Part shown: one piece after another, positions 2,929 through 9,048 of the stretch
How the letters are laid out: the number at the start of each line of letters is the position of its first letter
Numbering within the stretch: the first letter of the stretch is position 1
Virus genome (UHGV): UHGV-1555203
DNA: 10,147 nucleotides
Reading direction: 5' to 3' (one strand)
DNA from: a virus
Program-made: the position numbers and the translations under genes
The notes under the pieces: generated by a model
Seen by the model: the letters and a program-made list of their open reading frames with translations, nothing else
The model's database searches: none
What the model was told of the DNA's origin: nothing

Positions 2929-3225
2929 TCACTCCTGTTCACTGGCCTCTTTGGCCATCTTCAAATACTGTTCAGGGCAATGCGCCATAACGCGCTGAAA
3001 CAGTTCCAGCGCCAGATTGCGTTGCCCCTCATTAAATGCCATTGCCATAGCGTCCATCGGTGAGATAGCGGAAAACACACGGCCTTTCTCCAGCACCGAC
3101 CAGACAACGCGACGCCCCTGTTCACTGCTCATGACAAAGCGAATGTCATCAATTTCACGCTGTGCCATGTCACGTTGCTTACGGGCGTTTTCTTCTTTCA
3201 GTTGATCGTCTTCGTAATCTGTCAT
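2929..3225 (-). CDS. Hypothetical head-morphogenesis protein (98 aa)
   Basis: ORF-track 2929..3225; its ATG overlaps the portal stop (ATGA overlap at 3222..3225), implying translational coupling. No family recognised. Confidence 0.55.
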   Translation of the reverse strand: MTDYEDDQLKEENARKQRDMAQREIDDIRFVMSSEQGRRVVWSVLEKGRVFSAISPMDAMAMAFNEGQRNLALELFQRVMAHCPEQYLKMAKEASEQE

Positions 3226-5190: not shown

Positions 5191-5219
5191 TTGACATTTA
5201 ACGCACAAATTATTACCTT
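5191..5219 (+). promoter_or_regulatory. Candidate sigma70-type promoter for the plus-strand cassette
   Basis: Perfect -35 TTGACA (5191..5196), 17-bp spacer, -10-like TACCTT (5214..5219; weak, but T1, A2 and T6 present); embedded in an AT-rich block; inverted repeat TTACCT-TTC-AGGTAA (5213..5227) overlaps the -10. Confidence 0.4.
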
Positions 5220-5549
5220 TCAGGTAACAAAAGAGTTCATTCCGGTTACTAACCTGACTGGCTTGTCGTTAAATTGAACAGGTGGAGTGAGCTTTTATTT
5301 TGAGCAGTACGGCGTATGGCACATGCGCCGATAGCGGTCTGGATACGTTTAAGGGGCACCCTCCCTGGCTGTGGCAAACGAACCAGGTAGCCGGAATGTG
5401 CAAGTCGAGCGGTTTTATTCCGCGCACGGGGATTCACCATCCCGGCGATTCGGTGTGACGCCTCGGAAGAGACGAGGGTACAACGATGAGAGCATTTATG
5501 GAGCCGCGACAAAGTGTGGCGCCTTAACAGGCTAAGTGCTCTCAGCGTT

Positions 5550-5626
5550 GTGGCATTAGCTCAGTTGGACAGAGCAACCGCCTTCTAAGCGGTTGGTCGC
5601 AGGTTCGAATCCTGCATGCCACGCCA
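5550..5626 (+). tRNA. tRNA-Arg, anticodon UCU (reads AGA), 77 nt including encoded CCA
   Basis: Hand-folded cloverleaf: acceptor GTGGCAT/ATGCCAC (7 bp, perfect), D-arm GCTC-AGTTGGACA-GAGC, anticodon stem ACCGC/GCGGT with loop CTTCTAA (anticodon TCT), variable TGGTC, T-arm GCAGG-TTCGAAT-CCTGC, discriminator G, CCA. Close to E. coli argU-type tRNA but with different acceptor and anticodon stems. Confidence 0.9.
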
Positions 5627-5669: not shown

Positions 5670-5711
5670 GGCGGTGATAGTTTCCCTTGAAGGACTATCA
5701 CCGCCCTTTTT
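5670..5711 (+). terminator. Intrinsic terminator downstream of the tRNA
   Basis: Perfect 12-bp stem GGCGGTGATAGT / ACTATCACCGCC with a 12-nt loop, followed by CTTTTTA. Confidence 0.6.
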
Positions 5712-5823: not shown

Positions 5824-6243
5824 ATGAAGACAATTGATATGTTGGCTAAGTATCTAAATGAATGGCCATTAAAATATTCTCGTATCGTTCAGGCTGAAGA
5901 CTGCATTTTTTATGGCGTTTTTGCTGGTAATGAAATGCATTACGAAGTAATTCAGAGTGAGGGACTGGCCGGGTTAACTCTTAGCGAAGACCATGGTACT
6001 AGCGTTACGTTCCATGACTGGATAACAGCACAACGTTCTGAAATGGAAAAAGGCGATGTTTTTGATATTTCTCGCGCTGTTTACGCTAAAGCAAAAAGTG
6101 ATAATGATTACATGAGCGAACACTTATACAACATGAAGTTACAATGCCTGCATGCGGCGCTTATTCAGAATGGGCACTTCGATAAAACAAGTGCCATCAA
6201 TATTGCGGAAGCCATCAACGCTGGATTTAATGCCATTAAGTAA
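5824..6243 (+). CDS. Orphan hypothetical protein (139 aa), moron-type accessory gene; no family recognised
   Basis: ORF-track 5824..6243; strong SD AAGGTGA 6 nt upstream of ATG; visibly AT-richer than flanking phage genes; opposite strand to all neighbouring genes; followed by palindrome and terminator. No TM segment or catalytic motif evident. Confidence 0.7.
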   Translation: MKTIDMLAKYLNEWPLKYSRIVQAEDCIFYGVFAGNEMHYEVIQSEGLAGLTLSEDHGTSVTFHDWITAQRSEMEKGDVFDISRAVYAKAKSDNDYMSEHLYNMKLQCLHAALIQNGHFDKTSAINIAEAINAGFNAIK

Positions 6244-6247
6244 CACC

Positions 6248-6259
6248 GTGACATGTCAC
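6248..6259. repeat. Perfect 12-bp palindrome GTGACATGTCAC, copy 1 (second copy at 8699..8710)
   Basis: Exact self-complementary 12-mer with shared 5' flank TAACACC; lies 5 nt after the stop of the 139-aa ORF and before its terminator. Confidence 0.8.
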
Positions 6260-6263
6260 AAAC

Positions 6264-6290
6264 AGCCAGCCGATGAGCTGGCTTTGTTTT
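6264..6290 (+). terminator. Intrinsic terminator after the 139-aa ORF
   Basis: AGCCAGC-CGATGA-GCTGGCT stem-loop followed by TTGTTTT; a second hairpin ATCCTC-ATCA-GAGGAT follows at 6291..6306. Confidence 0.6.
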
Positions 6291-6333: not shown

Positions 6334-7809
6334 TTAAGCATATGGATCGTAATCTGTGATGGCCTTGCCTTGCTGGTTCTGCTGCCCGGGAATTCGCAGA
6401 CGCTTCGACACAGGGAACGCAAACGTCAGCAGTAGCGCATCGCCTTTACCAGGAGAACGCCCAAGCCGCTCCTTGATATCTTCCTTCGGTTCGATAACGA
6501 TTTTACCGTCCACTCGAACTTTGTACTCTGCCGCAGACAGGTCGTCCGCTGTTTCCTGGTCATCCAGCATGCCGCCCAGCCTCAGCCATGTCTTGCATGA
6601 GTTGAACATCTCCCCACGCTTGTTGAGCATCTGCGGGTCAGTAGACGCGCCACCGAACGGAACAAGTTGCCATGTACGACCCCAGCCATCACCGATTGAC
6701 TTCAGACCAGTTCCGTAACCGAAGTCGATGAACACTGCGTCAGCCTGGTACTGGTCTTCAAAGTCAGCGATACGCTTCGCCATAATCAGATCGTCAGTGG
6801 TCTTGTTGCCAGTCCACAGCACCTTACTGTGCAGCCCCTGCCGCAGGTATATCACAGCGTCATCAACGCCGGAGTATGCCGGGTCAACGCCGATTATCAC
6901 CGGAGCATGTGCAACCTGCGCAGCGGTTACCACCCGTTTCATTGCCTCGTCAGTAAGGCCGGTAGGGATAAACTGCAATTCAGATGCATCCGGGAATATG
7001 CCGCGCACACGGATTTTAACGAAGTCGCTGTCTTCCCCGTAGTCATCAACCCATTTCTGCAACTGCTGTTTGTTAGTGCCTTCCACCGTCCGGCTGTCAA
7101 TCTGCGCAGTTTTCCAGCGGTGTTTATATTTGCGGAAACATTCGCGAAAACGCCCGGTGTTACGTGTAGGGTTTCCGAACGCCACCCAGATAATCTCAGT
7201 GTCTTCGTCCGTAAGCGCACCCTCAGCAACTTCCCACACCAGATCCGCAATGTTCGACGCTTCATCGAATACCACGATGATGCGTTTGCGCTCGTTGTGT
7301 AGTCCGGCGAATGCCTCAGTGTTGTGCTCAGACCAGGGTATTGCGTCAGCCCGCCACCGCTTGTCGTGCCCAGGGTCATTGCTGTACATCGCGGTAGCGG
7401 TACAGGTAAACCAGTCTTTCGTGATAGCAAGGTTCGACCACTTGATAATTTCCGGCCAGGTCTTCGTTCGTAGCTGGTTGTCGGTGTTGGCGGTCACCAC
7501 GACCTTACAATCCTCGCAAGTGGACATGCCCCAGTTGATCAGCATTGAGATGAATGCGGATTTACCAATACCGTGACCAGAAGCGCGTGCCAACATAAGC
7601 GGCTGATAGCGCGTCTCTGGATTCTGCAGGTGATCACGTATCTCTCGGAACGCATCAGCCTGCCACTGACGTGGGCCGGTAGCATGTGCCAGTTCAGTCC
7701 CCTCTTCCCCCCACGGGAACGCATAGAGGGCATAGCCAAGCGGATCGTGAGTGAACCCTGCAATATCCTCGATTAACTGCTCTTCAGGAGATAACGCTGT
7801 ATCTGTCAC
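6334..7809 (-). CDS. terL: Terminase large subunit (491 aa), GTG start overlapping the terS stop
   Basis: ORF-track 6334..7809; deviant P-loop GHGIGKS, Walker B-like IIVVFDEAS, C-terminal nuclease-type acidic motifs (VIIGVDPAYSG...DDAV); GTGA start/stop overlap with the upstream small subunit gene. Confidence 0.9.
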   Translation of the reverse strand: MTDTALSPEEQLIEDIAGFTHDPLGYALYAFPWGEEGTELAHATGPRQWQADAFREIRDHLQNPETRYQPLMLARASGHGIGKSAFISMLINWGMSTCEDCKVVVTANTDNQLRTKTWPEIIKWSNLAITKDWFTCTATAMYSNDPGHDKRWRADAIPWSEHNTEAFAGLHNERKRIIVVFDEASNIADLVWEVAEGALTDEDTEIIWVAFGNPTRNTGRFRECFRKYKHRWKTAQIDSRTVEGTNKQQLQKWVDDYGEDSDFVKIRVRGIFPDASELQFIPTGLTDEAMKRVVTAAQVAHAPVIIGVDPAYSGVDDAVIYLRQGLHSKVLWTGNKTTDDLIMAKRIADFEDQYQADAVFIDFGYGTGLKSIGDGWGRTWQLVPFGGASTDPQMLNKRGEMFNSCKTWLRLGGMLDDQETADDLSAAEYKVRVDGKIVIEPKEDIKERLGRSPGKGDALLLTFAFPVSKRLRIPGQQNQQGKAITDYDPYA

Positions 7810-8402
7810 TGATTACCATCCTGACGTTCTTTGAGTCGCTTCCTGGCTGCTGCTATGCGATCAGCAATTGTCACATTCACATTAACATCCAGGCGTTCTT
7901 TGAATGCGTTGACGTCGACGTGCTTACCAATCAGTTCGAGGTTCTTCACCTTGTCAGGCCATTTAATTTTTTTGAGGATTGTCTCTATCGAATCCTCGTT
8001 CATGTTCATGATGGTCGATGACAGATCAAAGCCGCTAAGCGTAGTGCGCCAGATTTTCGGCCACTCGCGGATTGGCTTAAGGCTCCCATCGTCGTTGAGG
8101 ATGTCGATCACGTCCATCTGGTCGATCTCCACCAGGCGCATGAGAACGTAATCAGCACTGACGCGCATTCGTTTGTTGCGCTCCTCCATCAACTCGGCAA
8201 TCCGTTTCTGAATGCGTTCATCGCGCATCATGACACTGGCTTTAACTGCCGCTGTATTTGGGGAGAATCCTGCGTTAATCGCAGCCTGAGTCTGATTTTC
8301 AGGCGTTTTGATGTATGACTGGCAATAAGCCTCCTGCATTGCTGTTAGTGGCTTAAATTGCGTTGATTTGCGTTTATAGGTTTTAGGTTCAGCAGGCATC
8401 AT
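7806..8402 (-). CDS. terS: Terminase small subunit (about 198 aa from ATG 8402; track ORF extends to TTG 8480)
   Basis: N-terminal region LTAMQEAYCQSYIKTPENQTQAAINAGFSPNTAAVKAS matches the conserved helix-turn-helix core of small terminases; immediately upstream of and coupled to terL. The TTG-initiated extension (TITTTVTITTVV) is probably untranslated. Confidence 0.85.
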   Translation of the reverse strand: MMPAEPKTYKRKSTQFKPLTAMQEAYCQSYIKTPENQTQAAINAGFSPNTAAVKASVMMRDERIQKRIAELMEERNKRMRVSADYVLMRLVEIDQMDVIDILNDDGSLKPIREWPKIWRTTLSGFDLSSTIMNMNEDSIETILKKIKWPDKVKNLELIGKHVDVNAFKERLDVNVNVTIADRIAAARKRLKERQDGNQ

Positions 8403-8409
8403 AACCACC

Positions 8410-8438
8410 GTGGTAATAGTTACCGTTGTGGTAATAGT
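8410..8438. repeat. Tandem direct repeat GTGGTAATAGT (x2, 18-bp period) immediately upstream of the terS start
   Basis: Exact 11-mer at 8410..8420 and 8428..8438; on the coding strand reads ACTATTACCAC-N7-ACTATTACCAC ending 8 nt before the ATG. Confidence 0.7.
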
Positions 8439-8476
8439 ACCATGCAAAATAAAGCCGCCATAGTTGGCGGCAGTAT

Positions 8477-8710
8477 TCAAAGTCCATCAAATTCATCGTA
8501 AAAACTCTCGTCAAGATACCCTTTCCATTTACCGCGAATGAAAATTACATCCTCGCCGCAAGGGTGCTGACTGTCGATAACTATATCCCTCCTGGCGCAA
8601 CCATACTTATGCATGAGAAATTTAACCTCTTTCGGAAAATTAGCTGAGTTATCTCTCATATCTTCAAGGTCGTAGCGTATTTTTGGCATAACACCTTCGT
8701 GACATGTCAC
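8477..8710 (-). CDS. Hypothetical small protein (77 aa from GTG 8710, or 70 aa from ATG 8689)
   Basis: ORF-track 8477..8710; GTG start overlaps the upstream stop (GTGA), internal ATG at 8689 preceded by AAGGTG; stop overlaps the terS-frame TTG. No family recognised. Confidence 0.5.
   Translation of the reverse strand: MTCHEGVMPKIRYDLEDMRDNSANFPKEVKFLMHKYGCARRDIVIDSQHPCGEDVIFIRGKWKGYLDESFYDEFDGL
8699..8710. repeat. Perfect 12-bp palindrome GTGACATGTCAC, copy 2
   Basis: Identical to 6248..6259 including flank TAACACC (with 3-bp insert TTC); straddles the stop of the 113-aa gene and the start of the next gene. Confidence 0.8.
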
Positions 8711-9048
8711 ACTATTAATTTCGTTTCATGCCAGCCTTTGGTCACCCAGCATTGCGAGTCACCATTACACGGGCATGAATTAACTGGAACTCTCTCGCCG
8801 CACTTACCGCAACGTTTTCTGCTGATCGATTTTATACGCCCGCGCACCCGGGCATCATCCTGGCGGATCAGCAGCGCGATGTACTCGGCCATTTCATAGG
8901 GATCTCGACCAGGGCGCCGGGCGGCGCAGTTCCGCTCCAGCATTTCAATTTCCTGAGCATCAAGCACAATCTCCAGCTTACGCACACCAGATGCAGCTTG
9001 TCTGGCTCTCTGAGCGGCTTTGCGCTCTGCTGCTGATTTAGCCATCAA
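8707..9048 (-). CDS. Hypothetical protein with C-terminal Cys-rich zinc-ribbon-like motif (113 aa)
   Basis: ORF-track 8707..9048; basic/helical N-terminal half, C-terminal CGKCGERVPVNSCPCNGDSQC cluster suggesting a Zn-binding nucleic-acid-binding protein. Family not recognised. Confidence 0.6.
   Translation of the reverse strand: MMAKSAAERKAAQRARQAASGVRKLEIVLDAQEIEMLERNCAARRPGRDPYEMAEYIALLIRQDDARVRGRIKSISRKRCGKCGERVPVNSCPCNGDSQCWVTKGWHETKLIV

Follow-up and report, generated by a model that had tools for sequence, protein, structure and literature searches.

What function is served by a perfect 12-bp palindrome, GTGACATGTCAC, that recurs exactly on either side of the terminase genes of an Escherichia coli prophage is the question raised by the 10,147-nt stretch of viral DNA analyzed here (the window). 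At 100% identity, the window matches a prophage of E. coli MS 196-1 (NZ_CP146681.1) whose integration site adjoins guaA, and this prophage is an epsilon15/phiV10-like element (Uetakevirus) that has phiV10 and TL-2011b among its close relatives. The principal direction of transcription of the prophage corresponds to the minus strand of the window. The palindrome is located at positions 8699-8710 (copy a) and 6248-6259 (copy b). A sequence-only reading of the window had considered this pair to be non-random, had interpreted the palindrome either as the binding site of a dimeric protein (an operator or late-regulator site) or as a recombination sequence at a module junction, and had suggested a search for additional copies. 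The first of these claims is borne out by 200 dinucleotide-preserving shuffles of the sequence, none of which contained even one exact match (mean 0.00, maximum 0). The search identified a third exact copy (copy c) in the same prophage outside the window, at position 1,406,677 of NZ_CP146681.1, directly adjoining another terminator and situated between a small ORF and a BRO-N gene, as well as equivalent sites in related phages. A one-mismatch copy (GTGCCATGTCAC) is also present at 3162-3173, within a 98-aa ORF (2929-3225, minus strand); this place reads GTGACATGGCAC in phiV10 and TL-2011b and was not found in epsilon15, and the near-copy is probably coding sequence or the product of chance.

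As had been read from the sequence alone, both window copies lie at gene boundaries and bracket the terminase genes. Following the minus strand, the early-right genes end with an ASCH gene and the gene for a 112/113-aa Cys-rich protein (ORF 8707-9048). The 112-aa product of this gene (8707-9045), which belongs to PHROG 536, is the candidate binder of the palindrome on the basis of its homologs, their alignment and their co-occurrence with the motif. Copy a contains the TGA stop codon of this gene (8707-8709), and in its 14-bp form, defined below, it reads TGTGACATGTCACG on the minus strand. The next gene is a 70-aa ORF (PHROG 1541; 8477-8689, minus strand), whose ATG (8689) comes 9 nt after the end of copy a and which lies between this copy and an intrinsic terminator at 8454-8471 (minus strand; -16.2 kcal/mol, z -4.1). 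The terminator closes the early-right operon, following the 70-aa ORF and preceding the terminase promoter/operator region, and an equivalent stem-loop is annotated in epsilon15. The terminase operon (6334-8480, minus strand) comprises TerS (7806-8480 as annotated) and TerL (6334-7809), which together with the 70-aa ORF occupy the interval between copies a and b. Copy b starts 4 nt past the TAA (6241-6243) of a 139-aa accessory ('moron') ORF encoded on the plus strand (PHROG 4846; 5824-6243), and 4 nt beyond the copy is a terminator hairpin with a T-run (6264-6283, plus strand; -15.5 kcal/mol, z -2.9). This hairpin can serve in both directions, closing the accessory ORF unit on the plus strand and the TerS-TerL unit on the minus strand, and is annotated as a terminator in phiV10. 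The leftward-facing accessory cassette also contains a tRNA-Arg(TCT) gene (5550-5626, plus strand), and the portal and head genes come after the cassette when read along the minus strand.

Several features of this region merit separate mention. The tRNA-Arg gene is followed by a hairpin with a 14-bp stem and a T-run (5670-5705), so that the tRNA-Arg and the 139-aa ORF may form a separate leftward unit. The annotated TerS start at 8480 places the strong terminator (8471-8454) and operator dyads within coding sequence, and comparison with TL-2011b and epsilon15, whose TerS proteins comprise 198-199 aa, indicates that the true start is probably near 8399. The prophage harbors two IS3-family insertions, at 40997-42210 and 11853-13081 of two separate pieces of NZ_CP146681.1 (L003 and L292, respectively), and much of its structural region has been deleted; it is therefore defective, and it still retains the 112-aa gene and all three palindrome copies intact. 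Lastly, the shared 5' flank TAACACC that had been noted earlier is present beside both window copies, but it is no conserved part of the element. At copy b (6241-6247, plus strand) it directly abuts the palindrome and consists of the TAA stop codon followed by CACC. At copy a (8689-8695) it is followed by TTC and represents the opposite-strand ribosome-binding site and start of the 70-aa ORF, and it is missing from copy a in relatives that do not have this ORF.

The copies of the palindrome were then compared across related phages. In the terminase genes, epsilon15 and Tyrion share only about 78-81% identity with the window, yet both phages present the exact 12-mer at all three equivalent places, with exactly three copies in each genome. 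In both, site a overlaps the stop codon of the 112-aa homolog, site b adjoins the terminator at the junction of the terminase and accessory genes, and site c lies between the last structural gene and a terminator facing the BRO-N/antirepressor region. The flanks differ between relatives and the 12-mer remains exact, a pattern indicative of selection on the motif itself. In phiV10, copies b and c are exact and copy a, which spans the ends of its record, presents one mismatch; TL-2011b keeps copies a and c, and copy b is missing. Among 80 close relatives in IMG/VR, copy a is kept in 77 and copy b is found within 10 kb in about two thirds; its absence from about a quarter of the close relatives counts against the binding-site reading favored below. 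The placement of copy a relative to the stop codon of the homolog recurs in epsilon15, Tyrion, TL-2011b, N15 and a Yersinia phage. Copy b, in turn, is kept beside differing accessory ORFs in phiV10, epsilon15 and Tyrion: the copy and its terminator are constant, the ORF across from the terminator is swapped among many unrelated small genes, and the stop codon of the accessory slot is always 4 nt away from the palindrome (TA[AG]-C[AG]CC-GTGAC).

Such turnover of neighboring genes is what would be observed at a module junction, and homology breakpoints with respect to phiV10 do fall at the edges of the motif (6241 and 8697), with a variable outer flank at copy b. The 139-aa ORF (5825-6240) is replaced from start codon to stop in phiV10, with homology resuming at the TAA at 6241. 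The corresponding phiV10 slot (L004, 2278-2649) contains an unrelated 123-aa gene, and 98% homology extends up to its start codon and begins again from its stop. At the other end of the terminase genes, the 70-aa ORF constitutes an indel (8498-8696) relative to phiV10, with homology resuming 2 nt before copy a. This ORF is absent from phiV10, TL-2011b and epsilon15, and a remnant of 8 codons (ATGCATGATGAATTTGATGGGTTTTGA) is present in phiV10. The earlier proposal of a module junction is hence supported as far as the location of the breakpoints is concerned, but motif-mediated exchange is not shown thereby, because a conserved functional island located between swappable cassettes yields such breakpoints anyway. 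The breakpoints are best read as a consequence of such an island. The alternative holds that the palindrome is a non-binding linker at which homologous or illegitimate recombination swaps modules, and that it persists by hitch-hiking with the cassettes. Both the swap of the 139-aa ORF and the indel of the 70-aa ORF at the motif edges are in line with this notion, as is the constancy of motif and terminator next to a changing outer flank at copy b. Breakpoints are nonetheless expected beside any conserved functional island, and the distribution of the motif in phages that share no other DNA similarity, presented in the following paragraphs, makes a linker quite unlikely.

Homologs of the 112-aa protein were identified through tblastn in very different temperate phages. 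Those of ZF40, N15, a P2-like Yersinia phage and a Vibrio phage are 32-69% identical to the query, and each of these four genomes contains one to three copies of GTGAC-N2-GTCAC, versus about 0.04 expected per genome. The myovirus ZF40 has three copies, one of which begins 3 nt past the stop codon of the homolog; N15 also has three (GTGAC-TG/CA-GTCAC), one of them overlapping the TGA of gene 46; the Yersinia phage has a single copy, which overlaps the TGA of the homolog; and Vibrio phage K233 has three, none at the stop codon of the homolog. The recurrence of ten specified bases and a strict spacer in N15, ZF40, P2-like and Vibrio phages, without other DNA similarity, speaks against a linker that travels with its cassettes. 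When the ORFs of five unrelated motif-bearing genomes (40 aa or longer) were compared all against all, the 112-aa family was the only one common to all five, with the next-best family present in three. The protein nominated as a candidate binder in the sequence-only reading, where it was described as a 113-aa Zn-ribbon protein, is therefore the sole family found together with the motif in unrelated phages, an exclusive association that a hitch-hiking linker does not predict.

The association also holds when the protein is used as the starting point. All 158 IMG/VR loci fetched through the 112-aa protein and with room after the gene contain the motif, and in 149 of them a copy is situated between -15 and +60 nt relative to the last codon; the stop codon of the gene is usually part of a copy. 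Two locus sets of 1.3 Mb each yielded 129 and 149 matches, respectively, versus 1.2 expected per set. When all 1024 possible dyads of the form W5-N2-rc(W5) were ranked over 8 complete genomes, GTGAC was the top dyad, with 20 matches and presence in 8 of 8 genomes, and the runner-up had 7 matches in 4 genomes. The motif was not found in lambda, which also does not have the 112-aa gene, or in 20.8 kb of host DNA. Some lineages have no copy at the stop codon of the gene, and the Vibrio phage has none next to it, which counts against the pairing. Among bacterial genomes, matches to the 14-mer are mostly chance background: 3 of 80 pieces hold the gene, and approximately 4,400 chance matches are expected in 596 Gb.

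The aligned sites define a compact and rigid element. A pyrimidine occupies position -1 in 97% of 153 distinct sites, and the site was hence taken as the 14-bp YGTGAC-N2-GTCACR, with a pyrimidine preceding each arm. Within 2.94 Mb of carrier loci, 297 sites have a spacer of 2, and any other spacer from 0 to 10, or the everted arrangement, accounts for at most 4 sites versus 2.8 expected. The central dinucleotide is concordant within genomes, being AT in most lineages and TG/CA in all N15-like phages. Sites occur as isolated dyads, with one to four per genome, and no half-site arrays were detected in six complete carrier genomes. With regard to placement, 65% of 152 distinct sites overlap a stop codon or lie at most 10 nt downstream of one, compared to 15% of random positions, and for about half of them a terminator-like hairpin is found no more than 80 nt away. 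Some sites are intragenic, as in N15 repA and in ZF40. Given that terminators are found near only about half of the sites and that some sites lie within genes, a role at unit boundaries may be specific to Uetakeviruses. The conservation of intragenic copies such as those in N15-like repA, the flanks of which vary in a synonymous-like manner, is also difficult to attribute to a linker between modules. In N15-like phages the dyad occupies a fixed place within repA and in some of them a copy is also seen upstream of the antirepressor operon; N15 itself (L009) has dyads at 33237 and 28550, its sites including ones in repA and upstream of antC, and in the N15-like loci (L092-L130) the 12-mer and a few neighboring bases are invariant while the flanks vary.

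The copies of the palindrome lie by stop codons and terminators where transcription units end, outside promoters, and a promoter scan detected no promoter-like site overlapping the window copies. Reading GTGACA as a -35 hexamer was rejected in view of this negative scan and of the lack, across lineages, of a consistent -10 element at 16-18 bp. A pac or cos site was likewise rejected, since neither the terminases nor the packaging types of the carrier phages are related to one another. The position of copies b and c, and of copy a in epsilon15, which are transcribed just ahead of an intrinsic terminator, raises the alternative that the palindrome functions at the RNA level, forming a small hairpin ahead of terminators with an influence on termination, processing or 3'-end stability. 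The predicted hairpin is, however, weak (-2.9 kcal/mol) and no better than those of shuffled sequences (z 0.14), its arms are invariant and show no covariation, the central bases of N15-like sites are non-palindromic, and sites are found in both orientations and also inside genes. A search against Rfam returned tRNA only, with no family covering the palindrome. An RNA hairpin or known RNA family was rejected given the weak fold and the Rfam result, and a role in RNA appears extremely improbable.

The 112-aa protein belongs to PHROG 536, which is designated 'transcriptional regulator', and it has no sequence match in Pfam, NCBIfam or the PDB. The family is small: in a set of 1.84 billion representatives it forms about 200 clusters (50% identity), and its members are nearly all stand-alone proteins of 105-135 aa encoded in phages or prophages; domain fusions returned by the 1.84-billion-protein search were set aside as uninformative, being probably gene-calling artefacts. 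The family alignment shows an N-terminal basic segment or helix (ERKxAQRxR) with nearly invariant R8 and R13, a core with the pattern RKLEIVLD - AQEIEMLERNCAARR - PYEMAEYIALLIRQD, and a Zn-ribbon-like Cys-rich tail with a C-terminal CxxC...C...C motif. The core pattern is that of a ribbon-helix-helix protein, and the core is predicted to adopt this beta-alpha-alpha DNA-binding fold. No coiled-coil tail was predicted. The residues of the predicted beta-strand vary between lineages, whereas the GTGAC arms are invariant, and this counts against a simple assignment of the recognition element within the protein. The product of the neighboring 70-aa ORF showed no homology to gp47 of N15.

Among the closest known counterparts of the site is matS of E. 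coli, which is bound by MatP, a ribbon-helix-helix protein that organizes the Ter macrodomain. matS is the 13-bp GTGAC[AG]N[TC]GTCAC, the canonical form of which was found in an earlier survey to be avoided by prophages (PMC3603311). The two sites have identical 5-bp arms (GTGAC...GTCAC), and both systems pair a ribbon-helix-helix binder, predicted in the case of the phage, with few dispersed sites, none of which lie in promoters. They differ in the spacer, which is 3 bp (R-N-Y) in matS and strictly 2 bp in the phage site, with 297 N2 sites versus 1 N3 site in the 2.94 Mb of carrier loci. They differ also in the protein, since the phage protein does not have the N-terminal four-helix bundle and C-terminal coiled coil of MatP, and MatP does not have a Cys-rich tail. 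The MatP domains PF06303 and PF17414, both of which are present in MatP homologs themselves, gave no match at E-values up to 10 with either 7 or 60 family members, and hhalign assigned a probability of 0.05% to an alignment of PHROG 536 with MatP, using a shallow MatP profile of near-identical homologs only. Neither hhalign nor Pfam thus supported homology to MatP. By analogy, the phage system may work like MatP/matS, with a ribbon-helix-helix dimer, a GTGAC dyad and dispersed sites, without being a member of that system.

The identity of the arms suggests another possibility, namely that a host protein binds the sites, with MatP as the most obvious candidate, and that the phage makes use of the host chromosome-organizing machinery. 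All known hosts encode MatP, whose site has the same arms, and this weighs against PHROG 536 as the binder. The strict spacer of 2 rather than 3 argues in the opposite direction. Removing one base pair rotates and shifts the arms relative to each other and normally abolishes binding by a rigid dimer. Moreover, lambda does not present the motif, prophages avoid canonical matS, as indicated above, and the motif tracks the PHROG 536 gene, often on its very stop codon, a location for which a host-factor site offers no reason. The altered spacer and the co-occurrence with a phage gene disfavor binding by host MatP, which we regard as very unlikely.

Comparison with other known systems further delimits the site. 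The dyad or heptad operators of ribbon-helix-helix repressors (Arc/Mnt of P22, CopG, omega of pSM19035, and type II antitoxins such as MazE, TacA and ParD) overlap the promoter of the regulated operon, which is often their own, whereas the phage site lies at the 3' end of the gene and at operon ends. Sites outside promoters are unusual for ribbon-helix-helix repressors. The phage protein also differs from them in having an additional Zn-ribbon-like tail and an N-terminal basic helix. The 112-aa gene occupies the position of lambda Q, in that it closes the early-right operon and directly precedes the packaging genes, with a terminator in between, but its product has no sequence, Pfam or NCBIfam relation to Q families, and the site does not lie within a promoter with a pause signal, as the Q-binding element does. 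In the window about 260 bp separate the site from the putative TerS promoter region downstream of it, a distance that varies between relatives, and N15 has both a Q-like gene (gene 40) and a PHROG 536 family gene (gene 46). The SlmA-binding site (SBS) is another 12-bp palindrome, and its outer four bases are the same as those of matS (PMC3116907), so that it shares GTGA...TCAC with the phage site. SlmA, however, is a host TetR-family protein that has no phage counterpart in this system. The SBS reads GTGAGTACTCAC, and its inner bases differ from those of the phage site: positions 5 and 8 are G and C in the SBS, and invariant C and G in the phage site.

The palindrome can also be distinguished from the operator of the prophage repressor, since the operators annotated for the 'repressor' of epsilon15 are a different dyad, ATTACC-N5-GGTAAT. 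The window also has this dyad at 5213-5227 and 8420-8434. As a separate observation, in the shorter form TTACC-N5-GGTAA three matches were counted (5213-5227, 8420-8434 and, with one mismatch, 8402-8416) versus 0.14 expected. Their location ahead of the portal operon and of TerS suggests direct control of the late operons by the prophage repressor.

Taken as a binding site, the palindrome hence has strong comparative support for recognition by a dimeric protein, whereas the operator or late-regulator role initially envisaged for it is unsupported, its copies lying at 3' ends and outside promoters. On comparative grounds, we consider it probable that the palindrome is the cognate cis-acting site of the PHROG 536 protein and that it controls or insulates transcription across unit boundaries. 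In Uetakeviruses each of the three sites lies at the 3' boundary of a transcription unit, a few bases from a stop codon and near an intrinsic terminator. The 112-aa protein would be made late, from the last gene of the early-right operon, and could bind the two inverted GTGAC arms as a dimer or as a dimer of dimers. Its sites would then be occupied where the early operon ends, immediately ahead of the terminase genes (site a), at the convergent junction of the terminase operon with the accessory-gene cassette (site b), and at the convergent junction of the structural operon with the BRO-N/antirepressor region (site c). Once bound, the protein would modulate RNA polymerase at these boundaries, for instance as a roadblock that reinforces or modulates termination; alternatively, it could insulate convergent units or exert feedback on the read-through that passes from its own operon into the terminase genes.

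The same protein could, however, bind the site for a job other than transcription, such as replication control, packaging, or the bridging or condensation of DNA, in which case the proximity to terminators would merely reflect the scarcity of non-coding gaps. The sites within N15-like repA and next to the replication genes of ZF40-like phages are compatible with this alternative, and so are the limited number of isolated dyads (one to four per genome, without operator arrays) and the architectural precedent provided by matS. It could also draw on the arrays of GTGAC/GTCAC found in high-GC phage contigs within replisome-organizer-like genes. Against it, the replication genes of Uetakeviruses have no site nearby, the diversity of terminase types among carrier phages makes a pac or cos role unlikely, and the family is not predicted to possess a MatP-like coiled-coil bridging domain; on balance, a non-transcriptional function seems unlikely. 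The arrays themselves are clusters of half-sites that include the exact 14-mer (L190, about 10760-10900; L238, about 1890-1960; L209, about 755-800; L219, about 3140-3185). The ORFs that contain these clusters show a weak match to Phage_rep_org_N, and the clusters directly follow a basic ERKRRQRER-type motif that resembles the N-terminus of the 112-aa protein; they may represent an origin with iterons.

A broader interpretation, which we hold to be doubtful, is that protein and site form a portable MatP/matS-like module carried by unrelated temperate phages of enterobacteria, vibrios and aeromonads, with an architectural function instead of that of a classical promoter operator. The spacer, shorter by one base, would keep such a module orthogonal to host MatP, and the module might mark or insulate the ends of transcription units, bridge phage DNA, or interfere with the host SMC and divisome systems that read MatP-matS. 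The pairing of motif and protein is not reported in the literature searched, and the 12-mer was not found in it either; the ZX5 paper, for its part, is confined to the repressor, antirepressor and integrase.

The association of motif and protein assigns a probable DNA target to an uncharacterized family of 'transcriptional regulators', PHROG 536. It also delineates a small regulon that temperate phages of podo-, myo- and siphovirus type have in common, among them well-studied phages such as epsilon15, phiV10, N15 and ZF40. The placement of this target is unusual, on the stop codon of the regulator's own gene and at terminator-flanked operon ends. Since late-gene control in epsilon15-like phages is poorly understood, the pairing of protein and site offers a concrete and cheap experiment. 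The identity of the arms with those of matS, finally, raises a testable question of mimicry versus orthogonality with respect to a chromosome-organizing system of the host.
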